A stretch of DNA of 23,688 nucleotides, from the IMG/VR virus record IMGVR_UViG_2690316345_000009. One strand, written 5' to 3'. The stretch is from a virus. Taxonomy: Duplodnaviria; Heunggongvirae; Uroviricota; Caudoviricetes. The notes below the pieces were generated by a model. The model did not search any database, had not been told where the DNA came from, and saw only the letters and a list, made by a program, of their open reading frames with translations. This document shows positions 9,573-19,562 of the stretch, piece after piece (the first letter of the stretch is position 1; each line of letters starts with the position of its first letter). The position numbers and the translations under genes are program-made.

Positions 9573-11339
9573 ATGAACACCACACTGACACCCGCAGATC
9601 TCGATCCCCGTCGGCAGGCCATGCTGCTGTACTTTCAGGGATACCGCGTAGCCCGCATTGCTGAAATGCTGGGCGAGAAAGTTGCAACCGTTCACAGCTG
9701 GAAAAAACGCGACAAGTGGGGTGACTATGGGCCGCTGGATCAGATGCAGCTCACCACCGCCGCACGCTACTGCCAGCTCATTATGAAGGAGCACAAAGAA
9801 GGGAAAGATTTCAAAGAGATTGACCTGCTGGCGCGCCAGTCGGAGCGCCACGCGCGGATCGGCAAGTTTAACAATGGCGGCAACGAAGCCGACTTAAACC
9901 CTAACGTCGCCAACCGCAACAAAGGCCCGCGCCGTCAGCCGGAAAAGAATGTTTTCACCGATGAGCAGATTGAGAAGCTGGAAGAAATCTTCCATTCCTC
10001 CATGTTCAACTACCAGCGCCACTGGTGGGAAGCCGGAAAAGCTAACCGCATCCGCAACCTGCTGAAGTCACGCCAGATCGGCGCGACCTTTTACTTTGCC
10101 CGTGAAGCCCTGATTGACGCCCTGCTTACCGGACGTAACCAGATTTTCCTTTCTGCCAGTAAGGCACAGGCTCACGTCTTTAAGCAGTACATCATCGACT
10201 TCGCCAAAGAAGTCGAGGTGGAGCTGAAAGGTGATCCGATGGTGCTTCCTAACGGGGCCACGCTGTATTTCCTCGGCACCAATGCCCGCACGGCCCAGAG
10301 TTACCACGGCAACCTGTATCTGGATGAATATTTCTGGATACCGAAATTCCAGGAGCTGCGCAAAGTGGCTTCCGGTATGGCTATTCACAAAAAATGGCGA
10401 CAAACCTATTTTTCCACGCCATCCAGCCTGACACACAGTGCTTATCCGTTCTGGTCCGGTGCGCTGTTTAACCGTGGGCGCAACAAAGCCGATAAGGTGG
10501 ACATCGACCTGTCCCACAACAATCTGGCCCCCGGCCTGCTGTGCGCAGACGGGCAATACCGCCAGATAGTCACCGTGGAAGATGCGGTGCGCGGCGGCTG
10601 TAACCTGTTCGACCTCGACCAGCTACGCATGGAGTACAGCCCGGACGAATACCAGAACCTGCTGATGTGCGAGTTCGTGGACGATCTCGCGTCCGTGTTC
10701 CCGCTCAGCGAACTGCAGGCGTGCATGGTGGACAGTTGGGAAGTCTGGACCGACTTTCATGCACTGGCCCTGCGCCCGTTTGGCTGGCGCGAGGTGTGGA
10801 TCGGTTATGACCCGGCAAAAGGTACGCAGAATGGCGACAGCGCCGGATGCGTGGTGGTGGCACCGCCAGCCGTGCCAGGCGGTAAGTTTCGCATTCTTGA
10901 GCGTCACCAGTGGCGCGGGATGGACTTCCGCGCCCAGGCTGATGCAATCAAAAAACTGACCGAGCAGTACAACGTGACCTACATCGGCATCGACTCGACA
11001 GGTGTCGGCCACGGGGTTTACGAGAACGTGAAAGCGTTTTTTCCAGCCGTCCGGGAGTTTGTCTACAACCCCAACGTTAAAAACGCCCTGGTACTCAAGG
11101 CCTACGACATTATCAGTCACCGTCGTCTGGAGTTTGACGCCGGACACACCGACATAGCGCAGTCATTTATGGCAATCCGTCGCGCCACCACCGCCAGCGG
11201 CAACCGCCCAACCTATGAAGCCAGCCGCAGCGAAGAAGCCAGCCATGCCGATCTGGCCTGGGCAACAATGCACGCACTGTTTAACGAACCGCTGCAGGGC
11301 GAGTCCGCCAATACCAGCAATATTGTGGAGATTTTTTGA
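9573..11339 (+). CDS. Terminase large (ATPase) subunit (P2 gpP-like)
   Basis: 588-aa ORF MNTTLTPADLDPRRQAMLLYFQGYRVARIAEMLGEKVATVHSWKKRDKWGDY...; length and sequence characteristic of P2-family terminase ATPase; followed by the overlapping portal gene. Confidence 0.9.
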   Translation: MNTTLTPADLDPRRQAMLLYFQGYRVARIAEMLGEKVATVHSWKKRDKWGDYGPLDQMQLTTAARYCQLIMKEHKEGKDFKEIDLLARQSERHARIGKFNNGGNEADLNPNVANRNKGPRRQPEKNVFTDEQIEKLEEIFHSSMFNYQRHWWEAGKANRIRNLLKSRQIGATFYFAREALIDALLTGRNQIFLSASKAQAHVFKQYIIDFAKEVEVELKGDPMVLPNGATLYFLGTNARTAQSYHGNLYLDEYFWIPKFQELRKVASGMAIHKKWRQTYFSTPSSLTHSAYPFWSGALFNRGRNKADKVDIDLSHNNLAPGLLCADGQYRQIVTVEDAVRGGCNLFDLDQLRMEYSPDEYQNLLMCEFVDDLASVFPLSELQACMVDSWEVWTDFHALALRPFGWREVWIGYDPAKGTQNGDSAGCVVVAPPAVPGGKFRILERHQWRGMDFRAQADAIKKLTEQYNVTYIGIDSTGVGHGVYENVKAFFPAVREFVYNPNVKNALVLKAYDIISHRRLEFDAGHTDIAQSFMAIRRATTASGNRPTYEASRSEEASHADLAWATMHALFNEPLQGESANTSNIVEIF

Positions 11340-12364
11340 TGGGAAAGAGTAAAAAAAACCGCGTAGCGGCGATGAATCAGATCCAGCATAAAAGCCAGAC
11401 TTCAGCCGAAGCATTCAGCTTCGGCGATCCCGTTCCTGTTCTGGACCGCCGTGAACTGCTGGACTATGTGGAATGCGTACAGACAGATCGATGGTATGAG
11501 CCGCCAGTGAGTTTTGACGGGCTGGCGCGCACCTTTCGCGCCGCCGTGCATCACAGCTCACCGATTGCGGTGAAATGCAATATTCTGACCAGTACCTACA
11601 TCCCTCACCCGCTGCTCAGCCAGCAGGCTTTTTCACGTTTTGTGCAGGACTATCTGGTATTTGGTAACGCCTACCTGGAGAAACGCACGAACCGCTTCGG
11701 TGAAGTTATCGCCCTTGAGCCTGCTCTGGCAAAATACACCCGACGCGGGTTAGACCTGGATACCTACTGGTTTGTGCAATACGGTATGACAACCCAGCCG
11801 TATCAGTTCACGAAAGGCAGCATTTTTCATCTGATGGAACCGGACATCAACCAGGAGATCTACGGCCTGCCAGGTTATCTTTCTGCCATTCCGTCAGCCC
11901 TGCTCAACGAGTCCGCCACGCTGTTCCGCCGGAAGTATTACATTAACGGCAGTCATGCAGGCTTCATCATGTACATGACCGATGCCGCGCAGAACCAGGA
12001 GGATGTGAACAACCTCCGCAATGCGATGAAAAGCGCCAAAGGCCCTGGCAACTTCCGCAACCTGTTTATGTACTCGCCTAACGGCAAAAAGGACGGGCTT
12101 CAGATCATCCCGTTGTCAGAAGTCGCGGCGAAGGATGAATTTCTTAACATCAAGAACGTGAGTCGGGATGACATGATGGCAGCGCATCGTGTGCCGCCAC
12201 AAATGATGGGGATAATGCCTAATAATGTTGGGGGATTTGGGGATGTAGAAAAAGCCAGTAAGGTATTTGTGAAAAATGAATTATTACCATTACAAAAAAG
12301 AATGAAAGAATTTAATCATTGGAGCGGTGAAGAAATTATAAAATTCGAGAGATATCAAATTTAG
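11339..12364 (+). CDS. Portal protein (P2 gpQ-like)
   Basis: Track ORF 11336..12364 begins at a TTG; the adjacent ATG gives MGKSKKNRVAAMNQIQHKSQTSAEAFSFGDPVPV...; ~341 aa, P2 gpQ-like; start overlaps the terminase stop. Confidence 0.9.
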   Translation: MGKSKKNRVAAMNQIQHKSQTSAEAFSFGDPVPVLDRRELLDYVECVQTDRWYEPPVSFDGLARTFRAAVHHSSPIAVKCNILTSTYIPHPLLSQQAFSRFVQDYLVFGNAYLEKRTNRFGEVIALEPALAKYTRRGLDLDTYWFVQYGMTTQPYQFTKGSIFHLMEPDINQEIYGLPGYLSAIPSALLNESATLFRRKYYINGSHAGFIMYMTDAAQNQEDVNNLRNAMKSAKGPGNFRNLFMYSPNGKKDGLQIIPLSEVAAKDEFLNIKNVSRDDMMAAHRVPPQMMGIMPNNVGGFGDVEKASKVFVKNELLPLQKRMKEFNHWSGEEIIKFERYQI

Positions 12365-12370
12365 CAAAGT

Positions 12371-12386
12371 GCCTCTAAAAGAGGCG
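12371..12386. terminator. Short hairpin between the convergent portal and DprA-like genes (possible bidirectional terminator)
   Basis: GCCTCT-AAAA-GAGGC sits exactly between the two stop codons (TAG at ~12362-12364 on plus, TAA at ~12389-12391 on minus). Stem is short and flanking T-runs are weak. Confidence 0.4.
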
Positions 12387-12388
12387 CT

Positions 12389-13363
12389 TTAAATCAAGTC
12401 TAATGTACTCTGTTTCCCTGGCCATTTTAGCTCTAACAAATACTCCCGGGACTCATTTATGATCATAATCACATCATCATAATCCCGTTTTGTTTTTAGC
12501 GCTCTAGCCATGTTGCTCTTAACTAAATCAACTGTTCCCTCACAATTAAGATTAAGCGGATTATTAGGTAGGTGAGGTACAACCGCAAACACTGGTCTTT
12601 TCGCCTTATTTGCAAACTCAGCTTGAGTTATCGTTCCGCTATTTAACGCAGCCTCGATTAAAATTGAACCTGCAGATAATCCAACTTGTATCCGATTTCT
12701 TTGTACAAATGATTGTTTCTGGGCCGGCCGACCCATAGGATACTCAGAAATCCATGCACCACCTTTATCCAGAATCTCTTGAGCAAGTCGACTGTTTTGC
12801 TTCGGCTTAGCCTCCTCAAGACCATGCGCCAAGACAGCAATGGTTTTTCCTTTTGCCTGTAACGTTGCCTTGTGGGCATTCGCATCAGTGCCTATTGCTA
12901 ACCCACTTACAACAATATACCCAGCAGACACTATCTGATTAGTGATCCGCCTCGTTATTTCTTCCCCTGCAGGGGAGGTATCACGGGATCCTACAATTGC
13001 GACACCCGGCAATTCTTTGAGTATACTTTTATCCCCTTTTATGTAGAGAATTGATGGTGGATTAGGAGTAAAAGCTAAACTAAGAGGATAGAATTCAGAC
13101 CCATATGGTATTAGCTCCACACCATTAACATGGTGGTTCTCCAATTCAGCGTTCGCTATTAGAAAATCAGTCTCAGATATTTTATCTTTTAGAAACCCGT
13201 GGCTATTAACCATCTCAGTTAAGTCGCGTATATCACGAATAACATCAAAATCGATAAGCTCAAAGAATTTTAATACACTTTGATCAGATGCTAGCTTCCC
13301 GATTTGAATAGCTAATCCAAGTGTATTTTTTAATTCTTCTGAGTGCACTTTGCTACTCCTCAT
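12389..13363 (-). CDS. DprA/Smf-like (Rossmann, SLOG-type) domain protein; candidate ShosA-like component
   Basis: 324-aa ORF with DprA-family core motifs GVAIVGSRDTSPAGEE...GYIVVSGLAIGTDANAHKATL...IAVLAHGL; overlaps the upstream PRTase gene by ~11 nt on the same strand; AT-rich relative to the phage core. Confidence 0.6.
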   Translation of the reverse strand: MRSSKVHSEELKNTLGLAIQIGKLASDQSVLKFFELIDFDVIRDIRDLTEMVNSHGFLKDKISETDFLIANAELENHHVNGVELIPYGSEFYPLSLAFTPNPPSILYIKGDKSILKELPGVAIVGSRDTSPAGEEITRRITNQIVSAGYIVVSGLAIGTDANAHKATLQAKGKTIAVLAHGLEEAKPKQNSRLAQEILDKGGAWISEYPMGRPAQKQSFVQRNRIQVGLSAGSILIEAALNSGTITQAEFANKAKRPVFAVVPHLPNNPLNLNCEGTVDLVKSNMARALKTKRDYDDVIMIINESREYLLELKWPGKQSTLDLI

Positions 13364-13928
13364 AGTTTGCAGTTTCTAGCAGAGCTAATGGCATTATAAC
13401 TCCAGCTCCTGCAGACTCCAGTAAATAAAAACACGCAGACAAACTACCGCCTGTTGTTTTAACATCATCTAGTAGTAACACATTTCGCCCCATGAGGTTA
13501 CCACCCCTAACTCTGATACTAGACATGTGACCAGTAATTGAGCGATCTCCTCCTTCACGATGTGCGCTAGGAACAGTGCGTGTTCTTTCCAAACAGCAAT
13601 CAACAATGCCCCGACGGTGAACATTTACGATTCGCTCGGCGACCTCAATCAAAGCCGGTGAAATTCTGCCTTCAGTGTGAGACGGGACAACTGCTATCGA
13701 AAAAGGAGACTCAACAAAACGCCCACCGCCACCTCTGATTACTAACCGCCCAACCTTATCTATAGCTAATCGAGAAAAACGGTTAATGGCCCTTTGATGA
13801 TTACGATTATTTTCATCCTTAAAATCCATCATCTGCCTTGATAGTTCATCGCTATGAGGGTTGCGCTCTCCCAAATGCCAGTAGGGGTGATACAAGCCAC
13901 ACGATGTAATACTTACGGGTAAAAGCAT
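13353..13928 (-). CDS. Phosphoribosyltransferase (PRTase) domain protein; candidate ShosT-like component
   Basis: 191-aa ORF containing the type I PRTase PRPP-binding signature VLLLDDVKTTGGSL; first gene of a two-gene cassette with the DprA-like gene; sits between cos and the portal gene. Confidence 0.6.
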   Translation of the reverse strand: MLLPVSITSCGLYHPYWHLGERNPHSDELSRQMMDFKDENNRNHQRAINRFSRLAIDKVGRLVIRGGGGRFVESPFSIAVVPSHTEGRISPALIEVAERIVNVHRRGIVDCCLERTRTVPSAHREGGDRSITGHMSSIRVRGGNLMGRNVLLLDDVKTTGGSLSACFYLLESAGAGVIMPLALLETANYEE

Positions 13929-14045
13929 TCTTTATTCTCATGTAGTCCTAACTCAAACAATGTTAAGCGAAATGATATTTCATAGACAAACACAAATTTA
14001 AGAATAATCTCAATGATCACATTTTTGATTATGAAACAAAGCCAA

Positions 14046-14077
14046 GAGTTAGCGCGCGCTCGTATCCCCGCCACGCC
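14046..14077 (-). other. Candidate cos site (cohesive-end region) of the P2/186 family
   Basis: Minus strand reads GGCGTGGCGGGGATACGAGCGCGCGCT..., matching the first 13 nt of the 186 cohesive end as I recall it (GGCGTGGCGGGGAAAGCAT) and the flanking GCGCGCT of the P2 left end. Lies in a ~490-bp non-coding gap and is oriented so that the portal gene is on the left-end side, as in P2. Coordinates approximate. Confidence 0.6.
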
Positions 14078-14366
14078 TGCCCGCTTTGTGCAATGGTTTT
14101 CATGCAGGTGCATAACATACGAAAAAGTCCGTCACAACTGGCACGCCTGCGTTACAACGCTCCTCAAACGGTCATGCGATCTCATGCAGCATAGCCATGC
14201 ACTTAGGGGAGAAGTGAATGTTCGTAACCAAATGACCGTTTATATATCGAAGCAGAAGAACTAAGAAAGCTTGAGGTGTGCTTTGAACGTTAAACATAGT
14301 ATGTAAATGGTTTATTTTCCCGAGATACTCACTCGGGCCCAATCTGCTTATCGTCTTCATAAAATC

Positions 14367-14396
14367 AAACGTTCAGCCAAGAATATCTGAACGTTT
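14367..14396 (-). terminator. 10-bp-stem hairpin downstream of the HNH gene (candidate terminator of the ATPase-HNH operon)
   Basis: AAACGTTCAG-(10 nt loop)-CTGAACGTTT, ~30 nt past the HNH gene stop; followed on the minus strand by GATTTTATG. Loop is long for a canonical intrinsic terminator. Confidence 0.4.
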
Positions 14397-14422
14397 AGCT
14401 TTTATGGGCAAAACTGTATTAA

Positions 14423-15169
14423 CTAGCGAATTGACGGTAACGTCAGGCTCAAAGATTCATCATGAAGTTCCTGCATATAATCTGACCATAATCCTTGCAT
14501 CTGCATGGTTTCTTTCAGATAAGAATATTCGACTGAACGATGAAGCATTGTTGCTGATACTGCAGAAAAGGGAGATGTTTTCTGACACTCACCTAATATT
14601 GCCTCGACTAGATTCATAAGAATGTTTTTACGTCTAGTACTTGGATTCTCATTAAACCAATTAAGTTTTTCTATTGCGTCATCAATACTGCTATCTATAA
14701 GTTCCCCTGCTTTACAACGCGGTATAAACTTGTGCTCCCTGTGATTAAAGTTTAAAACATCCACTGTTGTTTTACCTAAATCAGTTTTACCTTTAATACG
14801 ATACCCTATCATATAAAGGTGTTCTGACGGTAAATCGTTGCATGGATTTATTATAGGATTGAGTACAACATTATGGCGTTGTTTTGAACCATTACAGTGA
14901 CGGCATGAAGGAAGGAGATTTTCCCATCTAATAACATCATCAGGGAAATTTTTTTTATCCTTAAAATGCTCAATTTCATTATAGGTGCTAGCCTCTTCAA
15001 GCTTGACCTCACAAAATGCACATTTGCCATTACTTAATTTTAGACATGCCGATTTTACTTCCGGATGATGCCAAACAGATGTTCCATTATCTTTAAACTC
15101 CTGAGTTAAAGATAGAAGATCAACACGAGTAAAAAAATCAGGAATAAAGTTCCGTTCAAGCTTAATCAT
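14423..15169 (-). CDS. HNH endonuclease-domain protein; candidate Septu PtuB-like nuclease
   Basis: 248-aa ORF with HNH-type arrangement CAFCEVKL...EIEHFKDKK...WENLLPSCRHCNGSK; start 1 nt after the stop of the upstream ATPase gene; strongly AT-rich. Confidence 0.7.
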   Translation of the reverse strand: MIKLERNFIPDFFTRVDLLSLTQEFKDNGTSVWHHPEVKSACLKLSNGKCAFCEVKLEEASTYNEIEHFKDKKNFPDDVIRWENLLPSCRHCNGSKQRHNVVLNPIINPCNDLPSEHLYMIGYRIKGKTDLGKTTVDVLNFNHREHKFIPRCKAGELIDSSIDDAIEKLNWFNENPSTRRKNILMNLVEAILGECQKTSPFSAVSATMLHRSVEYSYLKETMQMQGLWSDYMQELHDESLSLTLPSIR

Positions 15170-15170
15170 T

Positions 15171-16352
15171 TTACTCTTCTCTCTCTCGAATTGACATCAG
15201 GCTTATTTTAAGAGATTTACGAAGAATACTGTTTTGATGCAATGCCATATCCAAATAATCATAAATTTCTTTCGCCTTGTCGAAATTTTCTTCATCAACA
15301 AAACGTTCGAAATTATCAAGTAGTTCTTGTAGTTTTCTACTGAGAGTGCTTTCCATCCCCATTACATCTAACAAAACCTCTTCAACTGTCCAGGCAGAAT
15401 AACCCAAGCCATTTTCAGGAAGTTCTTTTACTCTCACTGTGCCATCATTATCTGGTACTAACGCAATGATCTGATGTGGTTTTGCATTCTGTACTACATG
15501 TGGGCTGTGAGTTGTGACAATAAATTGTGCTGATGGAAATGTTGTCGTAAGGGCTTCAGTGATTCTTGCCTGCCACTCAGGATGCAAATGAAGCTCAATT
15601 TCATCGATAAGAATCACTCCATCAAATTCTTGGGCGTAAATATCTTTCTCCGGATAACGAAGCTCGATCTCTTTAATAATACCGAGAAGGAGACTCATAC
15701 ATGATTTGAATCCCGAGGACAGATATTCATACCATATTACCCCGGTCGGGGTATTTACAAAAATATCGTAAGATTTAGGATCGACGCGATTGTAAGAAAA
15801 CTGAGGGTTTAAAATTGATATACACTCCCTTGCAAGATGTATATTTTTTATCGTATTAGGACCGTAACCATTATCTACTTTTTCAAACAAATCCCTCTTA
15901 GCAAACCAATCCTTGATATCATGTAAATTGACACCTAAATTAATCTGTTGCGAAACAGCATCATCGGATAGTGATTTATCTGCATTCAACGCCTCAAGAT
16001 GTTTATAATCAAAGTTACGTAATATTTCAAATTTTATTAGTTTCCTCTTATCAAATCCGTTATTATTAAAGTTGTGAATTGTTTCTGTAGGCAAATGAAC
16101 GTTAACATCTAATACTGAATTAAAGTTAACAGAATTATCTTCTATTATTAGACTAACACTTCCTGTTTCAGAAGTGACATTGCGTTTTATTCTATTAGTG
16201 TATCCATGAAGAAAAGGAAAGGAGGCAGCAAGCAAGAGTGTGGATTTTCCAACTCCGTTAGGCCCACATATAATATTCATGTCAGGCCTAAATTTTACGT
16301 ACAGGGACTTTATCCCCCCGATACCGTTTATAGTTAGCTCAGTCAGTTTCAT
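15171..16352 (-). CDS. ABC-type (AAA_15/21-like) ATPase; candidate Septu PtuA-like component
   Basis: Track ORF 15171..16373 starts at a GTG; likely start is the in-frame ATG with upstream AAGGAAA giving MKLTELTINGIGG.... Walker A GPNGVGKST, ABC-signature-like LSSGFK, Walker B VILIDEIELHLHP, H-loop TTHSP. No TOPRIM or other nuclease domain fused. Confidence 0.7.
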   Translation of the reverse strand: MKLTELTINGIGGIKSLYVKFRPDMNIICGPNGVGKSTLLLAASFPFLHGYTNRIKRNVTSETGSVSLIIEDNSVNFNSVLDVNVHLPTETIHNFNNNGFDKRKLIKFEILRNFDYKHLEALNADKSLSDDAVSQQINLGVNLHDIKDWFAKRDLFEKVDNGYGPNTIKNIHLARECISILNPQFSYNRVDPKSYDIFVNTPTGVIWYEYLSSGFKSCMSLLLGIIKEIELRYPEKDIYAQEFDGVILIDEIELHLHPEWQARITEALTTTFPSAQFIVTTHSPHVVQNAKPHQIIALVPDNDGTVRVKELPENGLGYSAWTVEEVLLDVMGMESTLSRKLQELLDNFERFVDEENFDKAKEIYDYLDMALHQNSILRKSLKISLMSIREREE

Positions 16353-16587
16353 ATATTTCCTTGTAATTTCCACTAACCCACATTCAGGATTAGCTAGATA
16401 CTAAGGAACAAGCCAAGTGTTGTAAATAAAAAATCTTATCTTATATTCGAGTTAGAAAAGTATGTTGCACCCGCTGGTTGAGCAAACAGTACAAAGCTGG
16501 CGGCCATTGAAGATCATGACCGCCATACCTAACGCCTCGCTTCACTCGTTGTTCAACCTTGTTCCCTCTGATAGGATCCTATCGGGA

Positions 16588-16809
16588 TCAACGTTTTAAT
16601 GTAACCTGCTGCATTATTTCCATTACTCGCTTTTTGTCTTCATCCAGTTTTAACCCGCTCAGTTCAACACCATTGGCGCTGCCCTTACGGATACGAATTG
16701 CTGTTTTGGGATACAGAGGGCGCAAATTACGGTAGAGCTCGGATTCAAGGGCTTCCAGTGTGGCCTGGCTAATCTTCTGCTCTTTATCGATCATTATTTC
16801 AATGCGCAT
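16588..16809 (-). CDS. dinI: DinI-family protein
   Basis: 73-aa ORF MRIEIMIDKEQKISQATLEALESELYRNLRPLYPKTAIRIRKGSANGVELSGLKLDEDKKRVMEIMQQ, matching the E. coli DinI pattern; downstream of a LexA-box-like operator. Confidence 0.75.
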   Translation of the reverse strand: MRIEIMIDKEQKISQATLEALESELYRNLRPLYPKTAIRIRKGSANGVELSGLKLDEDKKRVMEIMQQVTLKR

Positions 16810-16821
16810 ACAGATTTCCCT

Positions 16822-17010
16822 TTAACTGGTAACGTCCATTGATCGGCTGTATTCATGGCTGCGAATTTTCGCCATCAACTCATCTGTCAGTTCGGACACC
16901 CACTGGATAGCCAGCCGCTTTTCTTCGTCGCTGCACTCACTAGCCGCTACAAGCTTGATAAAAAAATCAATACGCTGGAGCTTCAATGACTCCAAAAGAT
17001 AGTCCTGCAT
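16822..17010 (-). CDS. Small hypothetical protein, first gene of the putative SOS-regulated operon (possible Tum-like antirepressor)
   Basis: Within track ORF 16822..17187 the ATG preceded by AGGAGGGAAG gives a 62-aa product MQDYLLESLKLQRIDFFIKLVAASECSDEEKRLAIQWVSELTDELMAKIRSHEYSRSMDVTS. The Tum analogy is positional only. Confidence 0.4.
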   Translation of the reverse strand: MQDYLLESLKLQRIDFFIKLVAASECSDEEKRLAIQWVSELTDELMAKIRSHEYSRSMDVTS

Positions 17011-17056
17011 CTTCCCTCCTATCATTACACGGATACACAAATACTGTACATATACC

Positions 17057-17076
17057 CACTGTTTATACAAACAGTA
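17057..17076. promoter_or_regulatory. LexA (SOS) box-like operator
   Basis: CACTGTTTATACAAACAGTA contains a perfect CTGT-N8-ACAG palindrome, ~40-50 nt upstream of the small ORF start. A degenerate second box (ACTGTACATATACCCAC) lies just beside it. Coordinates approximate. Confidence 0.6.
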
Positions 17077-17168
17077 TAGTAGGAAAGAAAAAATGTAAAA
17101 CTCTTTTTTGTCAGTCAATTGGATGTACTGACTCCAGTCAATAAAGCACGAAATGTTAAACAGCATCC

Positions 17169-19562
17169 TTAGTACCATCGACGCCATTTGTCATCTTCCT
17201 GCAGCCTCTGTTTACGGTAAAAAATACGTAAACCGGCACCGGATGGAATGCTGCCGCCACGCAGAAGCAAATCAATCTCAGATACACTACCCTCAAACCC
17301 TCTGGCAGTCAGTTCTGCCTCAAGCTGCAGGCGCTGCTGCTCCGAAATACTCTGTATGTATGCTTTTTTTCGCTTCGGTTTTACCAGTCTCAACCTGGCT
17401 GTCAGCTCCCGCCGTTCCTTCTGGCCCATGTTGTGGAGATATTCCTGCAGCTCCTTCTCATCCATGGTTTTAATATCGGGTAAATCCCCCCCTGATTTGT
17501 TCATATTTTCAACAGGGGGACAGTTATTGCCACGAGTCCAAGGGGCGCAAGCGCCCTGGTCGGCTACCGCCTCCTGAACGTCAACGGCTTTACGAACCAT
17601 TTTCCACTTCACTGCATGAGTGCAGATCTTGCCCTCTGCAATGGGTGACCAGATGCCATAAATACGAATGCCGTGATCGCCATAGGCGGTCGGCTCTTCG
17701 TTAATTTCATAAGCAGTTCTGATGAGGTGATATTTGCGGGGAACCAGTACGCCGCCCTGCTTCATGATGTAAGTGGCAAAACAACCAGCATCAGCAGCAG
17801 CCAGGATTGCATCAAGGCGCGGGTTATCCAGTACCGGCGCACCTGCTTTTTTGTCCCCCTGTTGCCTTGCCGCCTGACCAGCCAGCAATCGCAGTTCACG
17901 GTAAGCCTGACGCCCCGGAATGCCAAAGAAGCGGAATTGCTGAACACGATGCAGAGACGCCCAGGCATTAACGTATTCAGCGTTATCACGCAGGGATTTA
18001 CCCGTTTCCTTACTGATCTCGCCAGCCAGACCACGCCCGTCAATATTCTTACTGATATATTTCGCAATGTAGCTTGTCGGCGTTCCTTTGCGCGGGTTTA
18101 TCAGCTCAGACTTAAAGCGTGGCCCCGTGTTATTGCCCAGCTCCTCGCGGTCTTCACGGATGGCAAACTTACGCAACAATGCAGTAATGGCGCGGCGGTC
18201 TTTTTTGCGCATGAAACACAACAGGTGCCAGTGAACTGTGCCGTCATGATGCGGCTCAGCCACCCGCACGCCATACCAGCGCAACCCGGCTTTGTGCATA
18301 GCCTTACGAAATGCAGCAAACATGCCGACCAGATAATCGCTGCTTTGTCTTACTGTCGCGTTGGTCCAGGTCGGGTTTGGCCTGCCGTTATTTAGCGTGG
18401 AATGGAAACGTGACGGACAGGTGATGGTGTAGAAAACGGCGCAGTCACCGCGCATTTCCGCGATAAGCTCCAGACCTTTAACACAGGCCATCATCTCATT
18501 GCGGCGATGCGCAGGGTTGCTGCTGCTGGCGTTTACCACGTCTTCCATATCCAGCGTGTCGCCGTCTTCGTTCACCAGTTCATGAGAACGGAAAAACTCC
18601 AGCGACTTACGGCGCTGCTCACGTTTATGCATCACGGCTTCATAGCTGACATAGGGAGATGCTTTTTTGCTGACCAGGCAAACAGCACGCAACTGCTCTT
18701 CCCGCCATTCGCTACGCATCTTCCATAATTTCCGATACCACCAGTCGGCGCACAACATACGCGCCAGCGAACCCGGAATAAGTTCATAGGGCACGGGTTT
18801 ACGGCGGTTTCTTTTCCGGCGGAGTTGCTCAAACGCAGGCGGTATGACATCCAGTCGCAGGGTTTCCGCCGCCACCTTTTCCCATGTCTTGCGGATTTCT
18901 TCTGGCTTAACGTCATCGGTGGCATACAAATCACCACAAGCGACCTCAAGACACATGCTCATATGCGCTGCTACCAGGGTGGACAGGCGTTTTACCTGAT
19001 CCTGACTCATTTCAGGCAGGATCAGCAGGCCGTCCAGCCCTTCATGGCTTGCCATAAAGCGAAAAGAAGTGGATAGCTGACTGTCGCGTACATGCTCCAG
19101 TCTTTCCAGACATGGCTTAATCGTCTCACGCAAATAGCGGGAATAAGCCTTTGGCCTGCCCAGACTGCTGAAGTATTCAATACGTTGCATCAGCGGCTTG
19201 CTGATATGGGAAGGCAGGGCGTTGACGTCAGCCAGAATGACCATGTCTGGATTAAAACGCTGCTGCTCATGCGCCAGCTTTGCCCGGCTAATGAGCTTAT
19301 CCTGCTCCATTTCGCGCTGGACAGGATCACGGGATTCATTAAAGAAATAACGCTCCCAGACCTGCTCACTCAGTGCCTCGCGGCGCAGTTGTTCCTGCTC
19401 GTTATCGGCAGCATACAGAGTGATCAGGTTTGAAAGTGCAGACTCCGGCGCAAATTCCGCCGGGTCCAGATAAGGGTTAATGGCCTTTTTCGGGCCGTTC
19501 CATGAAAATGATGCAGCGGCCTCGTTAAAGCCGCTAGAGTTGCTCATATCGTCATGACTCAT
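17169..19562 (-). CDS. Replication initiation endonuclease (P2 gpA-like rolling-circle initiator)
   Basis: 797-aa ORF; size and position (between the Dam/TraR operon and the SOS module) match P2/186 gene A; start overlaps the dam stop (ATGA). Confidence 0.85.

Follow-up and report, generated by a model that had tools for sequence, protein, structure and literature searches.

The question raised by this locus is what a phosphoribosyltransferase (PRTase) gene and a DprA-like gene are doing together between the cohesive-end site (cos) and the portal gene of a P2/186-like prophage. The window, by which we mean the whole stretch of 23,688 nucleotides that was analysed, had been described from its sequence before, and in that preliminary description the two genes were taken as a ShosTA-like pair. 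This pairing was borne out when both proteins were compared with defence-system profiles and solved structures, and the pair is predicted to act by abortive infection as a type IV toxin-antitoxin system of the ShosTA type, carried as lysogenic-conversion cargo that would exclude superinfecting phages. From the sequence comparisons and the structural models we put the probability of this reading at about 80%.

The cargo slot beside cos

The features of the region are as follows.

11336..12364, plus strand: portal gene (gpQ homologue), left edge of the cargo slot (open reading frame; annotation of the identical E2348/69 gene)
12371..12385, no strand: small hairpin GCCTCT-AAA-AGAGGC in the spacer between the stop codons of the portal and DprA-like genes (sequence)
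12389..13363, minus strand: candidate ShosA-like antitoxin, a 324-aa DprA-family protein (open reading frame, HMM, AF2 fold)
13353..13928, minus strand: candidate minimal ShosT-like toxin, a stand-alone 191-aa PRTase (open reading frame, HMM, AF2 fold)
13929..14045, minus strand: AT-rich 117-bp leader from the cos block to the toxin start codon (sequence, homology break at 14046)
14046..14203, no strand: conserved 158-bp cos block, right edge of the cargo slot (homology, P2 cos alignment)
14423-15169, minus strand: Septu PtuB, HNH (PADLOC 1.6e-95; Pfam HNH)
15171-16373, minus strand: Septu PtuA, ATPase (PADLOC 1.2e-151; Pfam AAA_21/AAA_15)

The portal gene, cos, DinI and gpA were all located, which places the cargo between gpA and gpQ, adjoining cos. 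The cohesive-end equivalent at 14059-14077 is CTCGTATCCCCGCCACGCC (reverse complement GGCGTGGCGGGGATACGAG) and, set against the reverse-complemented cos 19-mer of P2, it has 14 of 19 letters in common. A search with this 19-mer allowing up to 3 mismatches found nothing, as the actual site has 5, and the site was located through alignment to the P2 cos junction (31/39). The cassette thus lies between cos and the portal gene as had been described, and the statement that this interval is nearly empty in P2 was also correct, the distance from cos to the Q stop codon being 167 bp in P2 and 1694 bp here. The cargo is AT-rich, with a GC content of 0.38-0.45 over 12.0-14.5 kb compared to 0.54-0.63 in the phage core, and it is convergent with the portal gene across a spacer of 24 nt, again in agreement with the earlier account. 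The hairpin in this spacer is a possible bidirectional terminator; the terminator scan did not report it and gave no usable terminator for the cassette. The leader is presumed to be the site of the cassette's own promoter, and a promoter scan of the minus strand in 13929-14045 gave no consensus sigma-70 promoter.

Comparison with related prophages, which had been proposed for defining the boundaries of the insert, gave a homology break-point on each side. The likeness with other P2-like prophages grows faint around 12310-12336, in the end of the portal gene, and homology to other prophages ends at 14046, where the cos block, common to 41 P2-like phage records at 82-86%, begins. In GPEC389 and in phage RE-2010 the same slot is occupied by AIPR abortive-infection genes, in E. 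coli S1 it is nearly empty, and the PRTase and DprA-like pair is missing from most related prophages. By its break-points the cos block is a junction of E2348/69-like and GPEC389-like sequence. Past cos lie the genes for PtuA and PtuB, which are adjacent and have full-length PADLOC matches, and four E. coli genomes carry this Septu pair (14423..16373) at 100% identity. Septu is a separate defence system in a second slot, and the cargo region reaches beyond cos to take it in. It was also observed that a cargo slot lies on either side of the cos block and that the two are swapped independently of each other, an arrangement that shows how such prophages shuffle defence genes.

The PRTase and its DprA-like partner

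The upstream gene had been described as a PRTase with a PRPP-binding loop, and the open reading frame at 13353..13928 does carry the quoted motif NVLLLDDVKTTGGSL, the PRPP loop being LLLDDVKTTGGSL with D154/D155. In the HMM searches that had been suggested as a check, both proteins of the pair matched the ShosTA profiles, the PRTase matching the generic PADLOC ShosT model PDLC03962 with an E-value of 3.7e-14. The prototype-specific ShosT model PDLC03012, which scores 914 bits on APEC O1 ShosT, gave no match to the 191-aa PRTase, and the Pfam Pribosyltran score was 18.6 bits, under the cut-off of 26.3. The AF2 model of the PRTase has a pLDDT of 91.3 and its best three PDB matches in Foldseek are the ShosT structures 8zvc, 8zvd and 8zvb (E 5.7e-6 to 4.2e-5, 141-165 columns), which outrank ComF and all salvage PRTases, at TM-scores of only 0.51-0.53. 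ShosT was not retrieved when the PRTase sequence was searched against the PDB with phmmer, and it was the fold search alone that found it. In sequence the PRTase resembles APEC O1 ShosT only at and near the PRPP loop, over 44-49 residues (36% identity over about 45), and hhalign of the PRTase family profile against APEC O1 ShosT aligned only 49 columns. After a 3-residue numbering offset, D154/D155 pair in the alignment with D331/D332 of ShosT, the PRPP-binding DD motif that is required for toxicity.

In the family alignment D155 is invariant and D154 is at least 90% conserved, and GDRS (127-130) and H134, which are placed in a predicted flexible loop, are invariant as well. The homologues are 40-88% identical and share 20 invariant columns, and the family profile takes in 273 cluster representatives (50%-identity) at E<=1e-30. 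Between a strand at 76-80 and a helix at 91-103 the model has a 10-residue loop (81-90). The N-terminal HAD-like pyrophosphatase domain is absent, so that the protein as modelled is the PRTase core alone, and most family members likewise lack this domain in the profile search. By its model, the product of the upstream gene is a PRTase fold which is structurally nearest to ShosT and in which the PRPP-binding DD motif is intact.

The downstream gene product carries the quoted motifs GVAIVGSRDTSPAGEE and VVSGLAIGTDANAH and matched the PADLOC ShosA model PDLC03961 with an E-value of 2.8e-70 and Pfam DNA_processg_A with 1.4e-60. Its TIGR00732 score of 186.4 bits is narrowly below the cut-off of 191.15, and it fails the enterobacterial DprA equivalog NF008007 (168.6 compared to 495 bits). 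The AF2 model (pLDDT 92.0) shows a SAM-like helical N-domain at about 8-79, a Rossmann DprA domain at 82-289, an extra helix at 292-310 and then a disordered tail at 318-324. In Foldseek the model matched 3maj, 8zva (ShosA) and 3uqz across 300-309 columns, the match to 8zva covering 307 columns with an E-value of 4e-20, and the protein is equally close to bona fide DprA (3maj) and to ShosA. The extra N-terminal region of about 100 residues in the earlier account turned out, in the model and in Foldseek, to be an ordinary SAM domain of about 80 residues. The ssDNA-binding residues R139, R234 and R261 of ShosA, mapped by hand on the phmmer alignment, correspond to R127, R222 and E249.

The downstream gene had been described as DprA/Smf-like and overlapping; the first part holds by HMM and fold, and the second is open to doubt. 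With the ATG at 13363 the gene overlaps the PRTase gene by 11 nt, whereas with an alternative GTG at 13348, which has AGGAG seven nt upstream, the protein is 319 aa long and a gap of 4 nt remains. The GTG agrees with the homologues, which are 317-320 aa long with gaps of 2-4 nt to the PRTase gene. It is possibly the true start, and the overlap may be an artefact of calling the open reading frame. With either start the gene is closely coupled to the PRTase gene upstream of it, and its product, as modelled, has a DprA/ShosA fold.

A mobile pair and the readings it allows

E. coli E2348/69 carries both proteins at 100% identity, and this identity, the conserved homologues and the family profile matches show that both open reading frames are real genes and not chance. 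The predicted toxin gene, we observed, has been left unannotated in the RefSeq record of this reference EPEC strain. In a search built on an alignment of closer PRTase sequences, the order PRTase then DprA was found in 22 of the 31 species-representative loci, archaea included, and the pairing of a short PRTase with DprA is kept from Enterobacterales to archaea. The pair occurs at the same site in a Pectobacterium P2-like prophage, and also in a Hafnia P4-like satellite, in Shewanella and Aeromonas Mu-like prophages and in Vibrio. It moves as a unit among unrelated mobile elements, and since it is shared by such elements and is replaced at the same site by other defence genes, it is cargo and not core. 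The pair is a mobile module of defence hotspots.

The nearest competing explanation is that the genes form a ComFC/DprA-like module that handles ssDNA for the phage or its host, in recombination or by protecting ssDNA intermediates, and has no part in toxin-antitoxin defence. ComFC is an ssDNA-binding protein that makes contact with DprA during transformation (PMC9005727); it is a protein of about 190 aa with a PRT fold and a DD..TTG PRPP loop, and its partner is a DprA-family ssDNA/RecA mediator, as here. H. pylori ComF (PDB 7p0h) is the fourth-best fold match of the PRTase model, ComF gives the longest NCBIfam alignment on the PRTase (residues 28-183), and the DprA-like protein comes close to the TIGR00732 cut-off. 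However, the PRTase scores 25.5 bits on ComF TIGR00201, for which the cut-off is 233.55, the ShosT structures and the ShosT HMM outrank ComF, and the four-cysteine zinc finger of ComFC is missing, C10 being the sole conserved N-terminal cysteine in the PRTase family. Moreover, the pair is not a competence operon but variable prophage and satellite cargo, found in variable defence slots by Septu, swapped with AIPR and missing from most related prophages. With one score far under and the other narrowly under its cut-off and no zinc finger, a competence ComFC/DprA pair was rejected, and we regard the wider ssDNA-handling role as improbable. It is quite improbable too that the pair is a toxin-antitoxin system selected for addiction, stabilising the element that carries it, prophage or satellite, and doing nothing meaningful against phages. 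The architecture and the gene coupling are TA-like and the pair was found on mobile elements in every case, but related ShosTA systems protect 10^6-fold against T7 (PMC11961720), the slot is otherwise occupied by known defence genes, and post-segregational killing is of little benefit to integrated prophages.

The PRTase is very unlikely to be an enzyme of auxiliary nucleotide salvage that boosts the nucleotide supply for the phage, next to an unrelated DprA-like gene. Its PRPP loop is like those of APRT, OPRT and HGPRT, but on the salvage families (APRT, HPRT, OPRT, PRPP-synthetase) it scores only 16-26 bits, the best being 25.8, against cut-offs of 107-296, the salvage-enzyme folds rank under ShosT and ComF, and the order PRTase-DprA is strictly kept from Enterobacterales to archaea. 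On these scores, fold ranking and gene order a salvage enzyme was rejected; the preliminary description had itself named a housekeeping PRTase in a pair of core phage genes as the finding that would speak against ShosTA, and what was found is a PRTase that misses those cut-offs in a pair that is cargo. We give hardly any credence to the PRTase being the effector of a retron or part of a PsyrTA/RqlHI-type system. PsyrTA and RqlHI share with this pair a DprA-like antitoxin and a toxin ending in a related PRTase domain, and PADLOC gave weak matches, one to PsyrA (1e-30) and one to the PRTase part at the C-terminus of PsyrT (4.9e-6). Of the 689 positions in the PsyrT model, however, just 577-686 are matched, and the large RecQ-like helicase region of PsyrT is missing here. 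The slot holds neither a reverse transcriptase nor a helicase open reading frame and Rfam gave no match in 11000-17500; both a retron effector and PsyrTA were rejected on these grounds.

Proposed action and comparison with known ShosTA systems

If the pair acts as ShosTA does, the PRTase would bind PRPP and, when unopposed, would disturb purine/nucleotide metabolism, leading to DNA damage, filamentation and death, whereas a dimer of the DprA-like protein would bind ssDNA and offset the damage with RecA and recombination proteins, with no binding to the toxin (PMC11961720, PMC12961424). The antitoxin would be labile, as its disordered C-terminal tail suggests, and for this reason phage shut-off of host expression, phage ssDNA, or both could tip the balance on infection, and the infected cell would die or stall. 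The bare PRTase core would be unable to hydrolyse its own PPi product. In prototype ShosT the R56A mutation in the PPase site lowers toxicity just marginally and mutation of the DD motif abolishes it (PMC11961720); the pyrophosphatase domain is thus accessory there, and a PRTase-only toxin fits these results.

It is doubtful, though worth stating, that the bare 191-aa PRTase is the ancestral, self-sufficient ShosT toxin and that ShosT/ShosA descended from the ComFC/DprA pair that handles ssDNA in natural transformation. If this were true, toxins of the ShosT type could have as their acceptor not a free purine but a base of a single-stranded nucleic acid, and the toxin would be a phosphoribosylating counterpart of DarT whose DprA-like partner shields or repairs the same ssDNA. 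Such an acceptor would account for the findings that free purines do not bind ShosT (PMC11961720), that ShosT damage is genomic, and that ShosA function requires ssDNA binding and RecA.

As a ShosTA-type system, the predicted identity of the pair invites comparison with what is known. The literature describes ShosTA as a type IV toxin-antitoxin system that works by abortive infection, the original paper being Kimelman 2012.

The systems studied are those of E. coli APEC O1 / KTE181 (Rousset 2022; Millman 2022; Pu 2025, PDB 8zva-8zvd; Yang 2026, PDB 9vzo), and Rousset et al. (2022) took a 'DprA+PRTase' system (pFR105) from this P2 gpA-gpQ hotspot and validated its action against both T7 and lambda. 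The present pair shares with ShosTA the order of a PRTase toxin gene followed by a DprA-like antitoxin gene and the location in this prophage hotspot beside cos. The predicted toxin has the PRTase fold and the DD motif for PRPP, and in its model a long loop follows the first core strand, which may correspond to the non-canonical long PPi loop of nine residues in prototype ShosT. Like ShosA as described, the predicted antitoxin has a SAM domain before its Rossmann domain, an additional helix at the C-terminus and a disordered tail, and by the hand mapping it keeps two of the three ssDNA-binding arginines (R127 and R222), the equivalent of R261 being Glu (E249). The antitoxin is, however, just 27% identical to 8zva in the Foldseek structural alignment, and the toxin goes unmatched by the prototype-specific PADLOC model. 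Prototype ShosT is 424 aa long with a HAD-like pyrophosphatase domain at residues 1-164, and every experimentally studied ShosT has such an N-terminal HAD/PPase domain (PMC11961720), whereas the toxin here is 191 aa long and has none.

The exact pair was not found among the rows listed in the supplementary tables of Rousset 2022. Arrangement 98 of that study comes from the same hotspot and likewise joins a short PRTase (193 aa) to a partner of the SLOG/DprA superfamily, but the likeness is confined to the PRPP loop (10/22 residues) and the partner is 185 aa long and has no SAM domain. In one respect the locus adds a further annotated cassette to those of a prophage hotspot already known for defence genes. 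Beyond this it offers a natural, PRTase-only predicted ShosT, found with 100% identity in E2348/69, a pathogen in standard laboratory use, and such a pair would make a clean minimal system for the search for the ShosT acceptor substrate and could show whether the pyrophosphatase domain matters. The system type and the hotspot location are already known, and the toxin differs in being PRTase-only.

Cargo slots around the cos site

The window is a P2/186-like prophage in which P2-family capsid and scaffold proteins are encoded. Its features around the cassette, that is, the PRTase and DprA-like genes, are as follows.

9573-11339, +, large terminase
11336-12364, +, portal gene
13363-12389, -, DprA-like ORF, 324 aa
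13928-13353, -, phosphoribosyltransferase (PRTase) ORF, 191 aa
14204 to about 16528, right slot, holding a complete Septu system
14423-16373, -, Septu PtuB HNH (248 aa; PADLOC, 1.6e-95) and PtuA ATPase (400 aa; PADLOC, 1.2e-151)
16588-16809, -, DinI-like gene, far side of the cargo
17169-19562, -, replication protein gpA, far side of the cargo
Dam methylase, CII and CI genes, far side of the cargo with the DinI-like gene and gpA

The GC content at about 12.0-17.5 kb is 0.34-0.46 compared to 0.54-0.63 in the phage core, and this drop marks foreign cargo. When the window was searched with the P2 cos 19-mer, allowing up to 3 mismatches, no match was found. A 158-bp block at 14046-14203 is, however, common to 41 P2-like phage records at 82-86% identity, and when it was aligned to the circularised P2 junction the cohesive-end equivalent fell at 14059-14077 (CTCGTATCCCCGCCACGCC), with 14 of the 19 positions as in P2. 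The distance from cos to the portal stop codon is 1694 bp in the window and only 167 bp, with nothing but a terminator, in P2. Thus, the cassette is inserted between cos and the portal gene, and the preliminary description was right on this.

The comparison with related prophages that it proposed does define boundaries. Homology to E. coli E2348/69 (11300-14203, 99%) ends where the cos block ends, and homology to E. coli GPEC389 (14046-17300, 100%) starts where the block starts. In GPEC389 and Salmonella phage RE-2010 the portal-cos slot is occupied by an AIPR abortive-infection gene, and in E. coli S1 both slots are almost empty. These break-points and alternative contents indicate that two independent cargo slots flank the conserved cos block. 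Judged by homology, the window joins a left slot of the E2348/69 type to a right slot of the GPEC389 type, and since its similarity to E2348/69 extends to 14203 and that to GPEC389 begins at 14046, the cos block looks like the recombination junction. It is the sole conserved sequence between the two variable slots. The exact combination of slots was found in no complete E. coli genome of the collection. Four E. coli genomes carry, at 100% identity, the Septu system that fills the slot from cos to the DinI-like gene.

The two genes and their products

Both ORFs were found at the site claimed for them, with the motifs quoted. E. coli O127:H6 E2348/69 encodes both products at 100% identity, and the cassette is present at a coverage of at least 80% in 22 of 5,426 complete E. 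coli genomes. In E2348/69 (NC_011601.1; locus L001, 7054-7629) the identical 191-aa PRTase (toxin) ORF is unannotated in RefSeq and the DprA-like gene is annotated. Over 93% of its length the PRTase is matched at 100% identity by two metagenomic gene calls, P0002 (259 aa) and P0001 (185 aa), whose different lengths may come from alternative starts or truncated contigs. The overlap reported earlier holds if the DprA-like gene starts at ATG 13363 (11 nt), but not if it starts at GTG 13348, seven nt past an AGGAG, which gives a protein of 319 aa and leaves 4 nt between the genes, an arrangement also seen in homologues. Whichever start is used, the genes are tightly coupled. This AGGAG is built from the conserved terminal Glu-Glu-stop (YEE-stop) codons of the toxin (13346-13363, -), so the toxin C-terminus may be constrained partly as the ribosome-binding site of the antitoxin.

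The profile search suggested earlier gave a ShosTA-type pair: PADLOC called the DprA-like protein ShosA (PDLC03961, 2.8e-70) and the PRTase ShosT (PDLC03962, the generic model, 3.7e-14). The DprA-like protein matched Pfam DNA_processg_A at 1.4e-60; it scored far below the cut-off of the enterobacterial DprA equivalog (168.6 vs 495 bits) and narrowly under that of TIGR00732 (186.4 vs 191.15). Its predicted structure (pLDDT 92.0) has four helices (8-79), a Rossmann domain (82-289), a helix (292-310) and a disordered tail, which is the SAM, Rossmann, alpha14 and labile-tail layout described for ShosA. The model aligned over its full length with R. palustris DprA, S. pneumoniae DprA and ShosA of APEC O1 (8zva; E 4e-20, 307 columns). 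The "extra ~100-aa N-terminal region of unknown function" is therefore an ordinary SAM domain.

Homologues of the PRTase at 40-88% identity have 20 invariant positions in common, and its profile gave 273 matches at E<=1e-30 among 1.84 billion representatives, mostly stand-alone proteins of 170-200 aa. Judging from these matches, the family is real and large. In other members the PRTase domain is fused to an N-terminal HAD, a C-terminal HAD, TPR repeats or a PsyrT-like region (P0266, P0295, P0214 and P0182), and for short and fused forms alike the generic ShosT model is the best match. These varied fusions suggest that the PRTase domain is a toxin core to which interchangeable accessory domains are joined in a modular way.

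Occurrence of the pair as a unit

By gene order, the short PRTase and DprA-like genes form a unit. A short PRTase gene followed by an adjacent DprA-like gene of about 310-320 aa was found in a P2-like prophage of Pectobacterium, where it occupies the site that it has in the window, in Vibrio, and at these loci.

L003, 6001-7535, Shewanella algae Mu-like prophage, between mor and lysis genes
L012, 3405-4960, Aeromonas Mu-like prophage, within the head-gene block
L008, 6001-7537, Hafnia P4-like satellite, adjoining an FRG-domain gene

A full-length PRTase is encoded at 31 loci of the species-representative genomes, and at 22 of them the next ORF downstream, on the same strand, is DprA-like; these 22 include loci from Bacteroidota, cyanobacteria, Clostridia and several lineages of archaea. 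Short PRTases are orphans, with no DprA-like neighbour, in ANME-2/Methanosarcinales MAGs (L027, L028, L030); in L030 the gene is flanked by transporter and aminotransferase genes and the family GDRS motif is altered to GESSD. A distant 294-aa homologue with an acidic C-terminal extension (L007, 5001-5885; cyanobacterium Symplocastrum) also has no DprA neighbour and is found close to NTase-conflict and Hypoth_Ymh genes in an apparent defence island.

Alternatives, mode of action and comparison with characterised ShosTA

That the PRTase is a salvage enzyme is improbable because no salvage PRTase family came near its cut-off with this protein, whose only Pfam match was a sub-threshold Pribosyltran, and because salvage folds rank after ShosT and ComF: the best PDB matches of the model (pLDDT 91.3) are three ShosT crystal structures, followed by H. 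pylori ComF (7p0h) and then salvage enzymes. ComF, the fourth-best match, gives the longest family alignment, which favours a ComFC/DprA-like ssDNA-handling module; this reading was nevertheless ranked low. ShosT and ShosA do parallel ComFC and DprA, two ssDNA-handling partners in natural transformation, and ComF is mentioned in neither ShosTA mechanism paper (PMC11961720, PMC12961424). It is quite doubtful that the minimal toxin would act, as ComFC, on single-stranded nucleic acid and not on free bases. A pure addiction module was also considered unlikely, as was a retron or PsyrTA effector; a search for RNA families in 11000-17500 found none.

For a ShosTA-type pair, published work suggests by analogy that the PRTase would bind PRPP and, if unopposed, disturb nucleotide metabolism and damage DNA, and that the DprA-like dimer would bind ssDNA and, with RecA and recombination factors, offset this damage with no toxin contact. 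The antitoxin is presumed to be unstable, so toxicity would be released and infection aborted when a phage shuts off host expression (T7 Gp0.7) and/or when phage ssDNA is present. A toxin without the pyrophosphatase (PPase) domain would be compatible with this mechanism, since in the prototype the PPase mutant retains most toxicity and the DD mutant loses it (PMC11961720).

From the P2 gpA-gpQ hotspot of E. coli APEC O1, Rousset et al. validated a system (pFR105) that acts against T7 and lambda; Pu et al. later dissected the same system and Yang et al. worked on the KTE181 homologue (PMC11961720, PMC12961424). Published work already covers ShosTA as a type of system, how it acts and its presence in this hotspot, and the variant is captured by defence-system HMMs; what is new is only a natural PRTase-only putative toxin. 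[quoted passage not shown] APEC O1 ShosT scores 914 bits with the prototype model PDLC03012, unlike the PRTase here, which matches only the generic model, and by BLASTP and profile comparison the two proteins align over 44-49 residues around the PRPP loop only. The catalytic D331/D332 of ShosT correspond to D154/D155 here, and two of the three ssDNA-binding arginines of ShosA are kept (R127, R222) whereas the equivalent of R261 is E249, as mapped by hand from a phmmer alignment.
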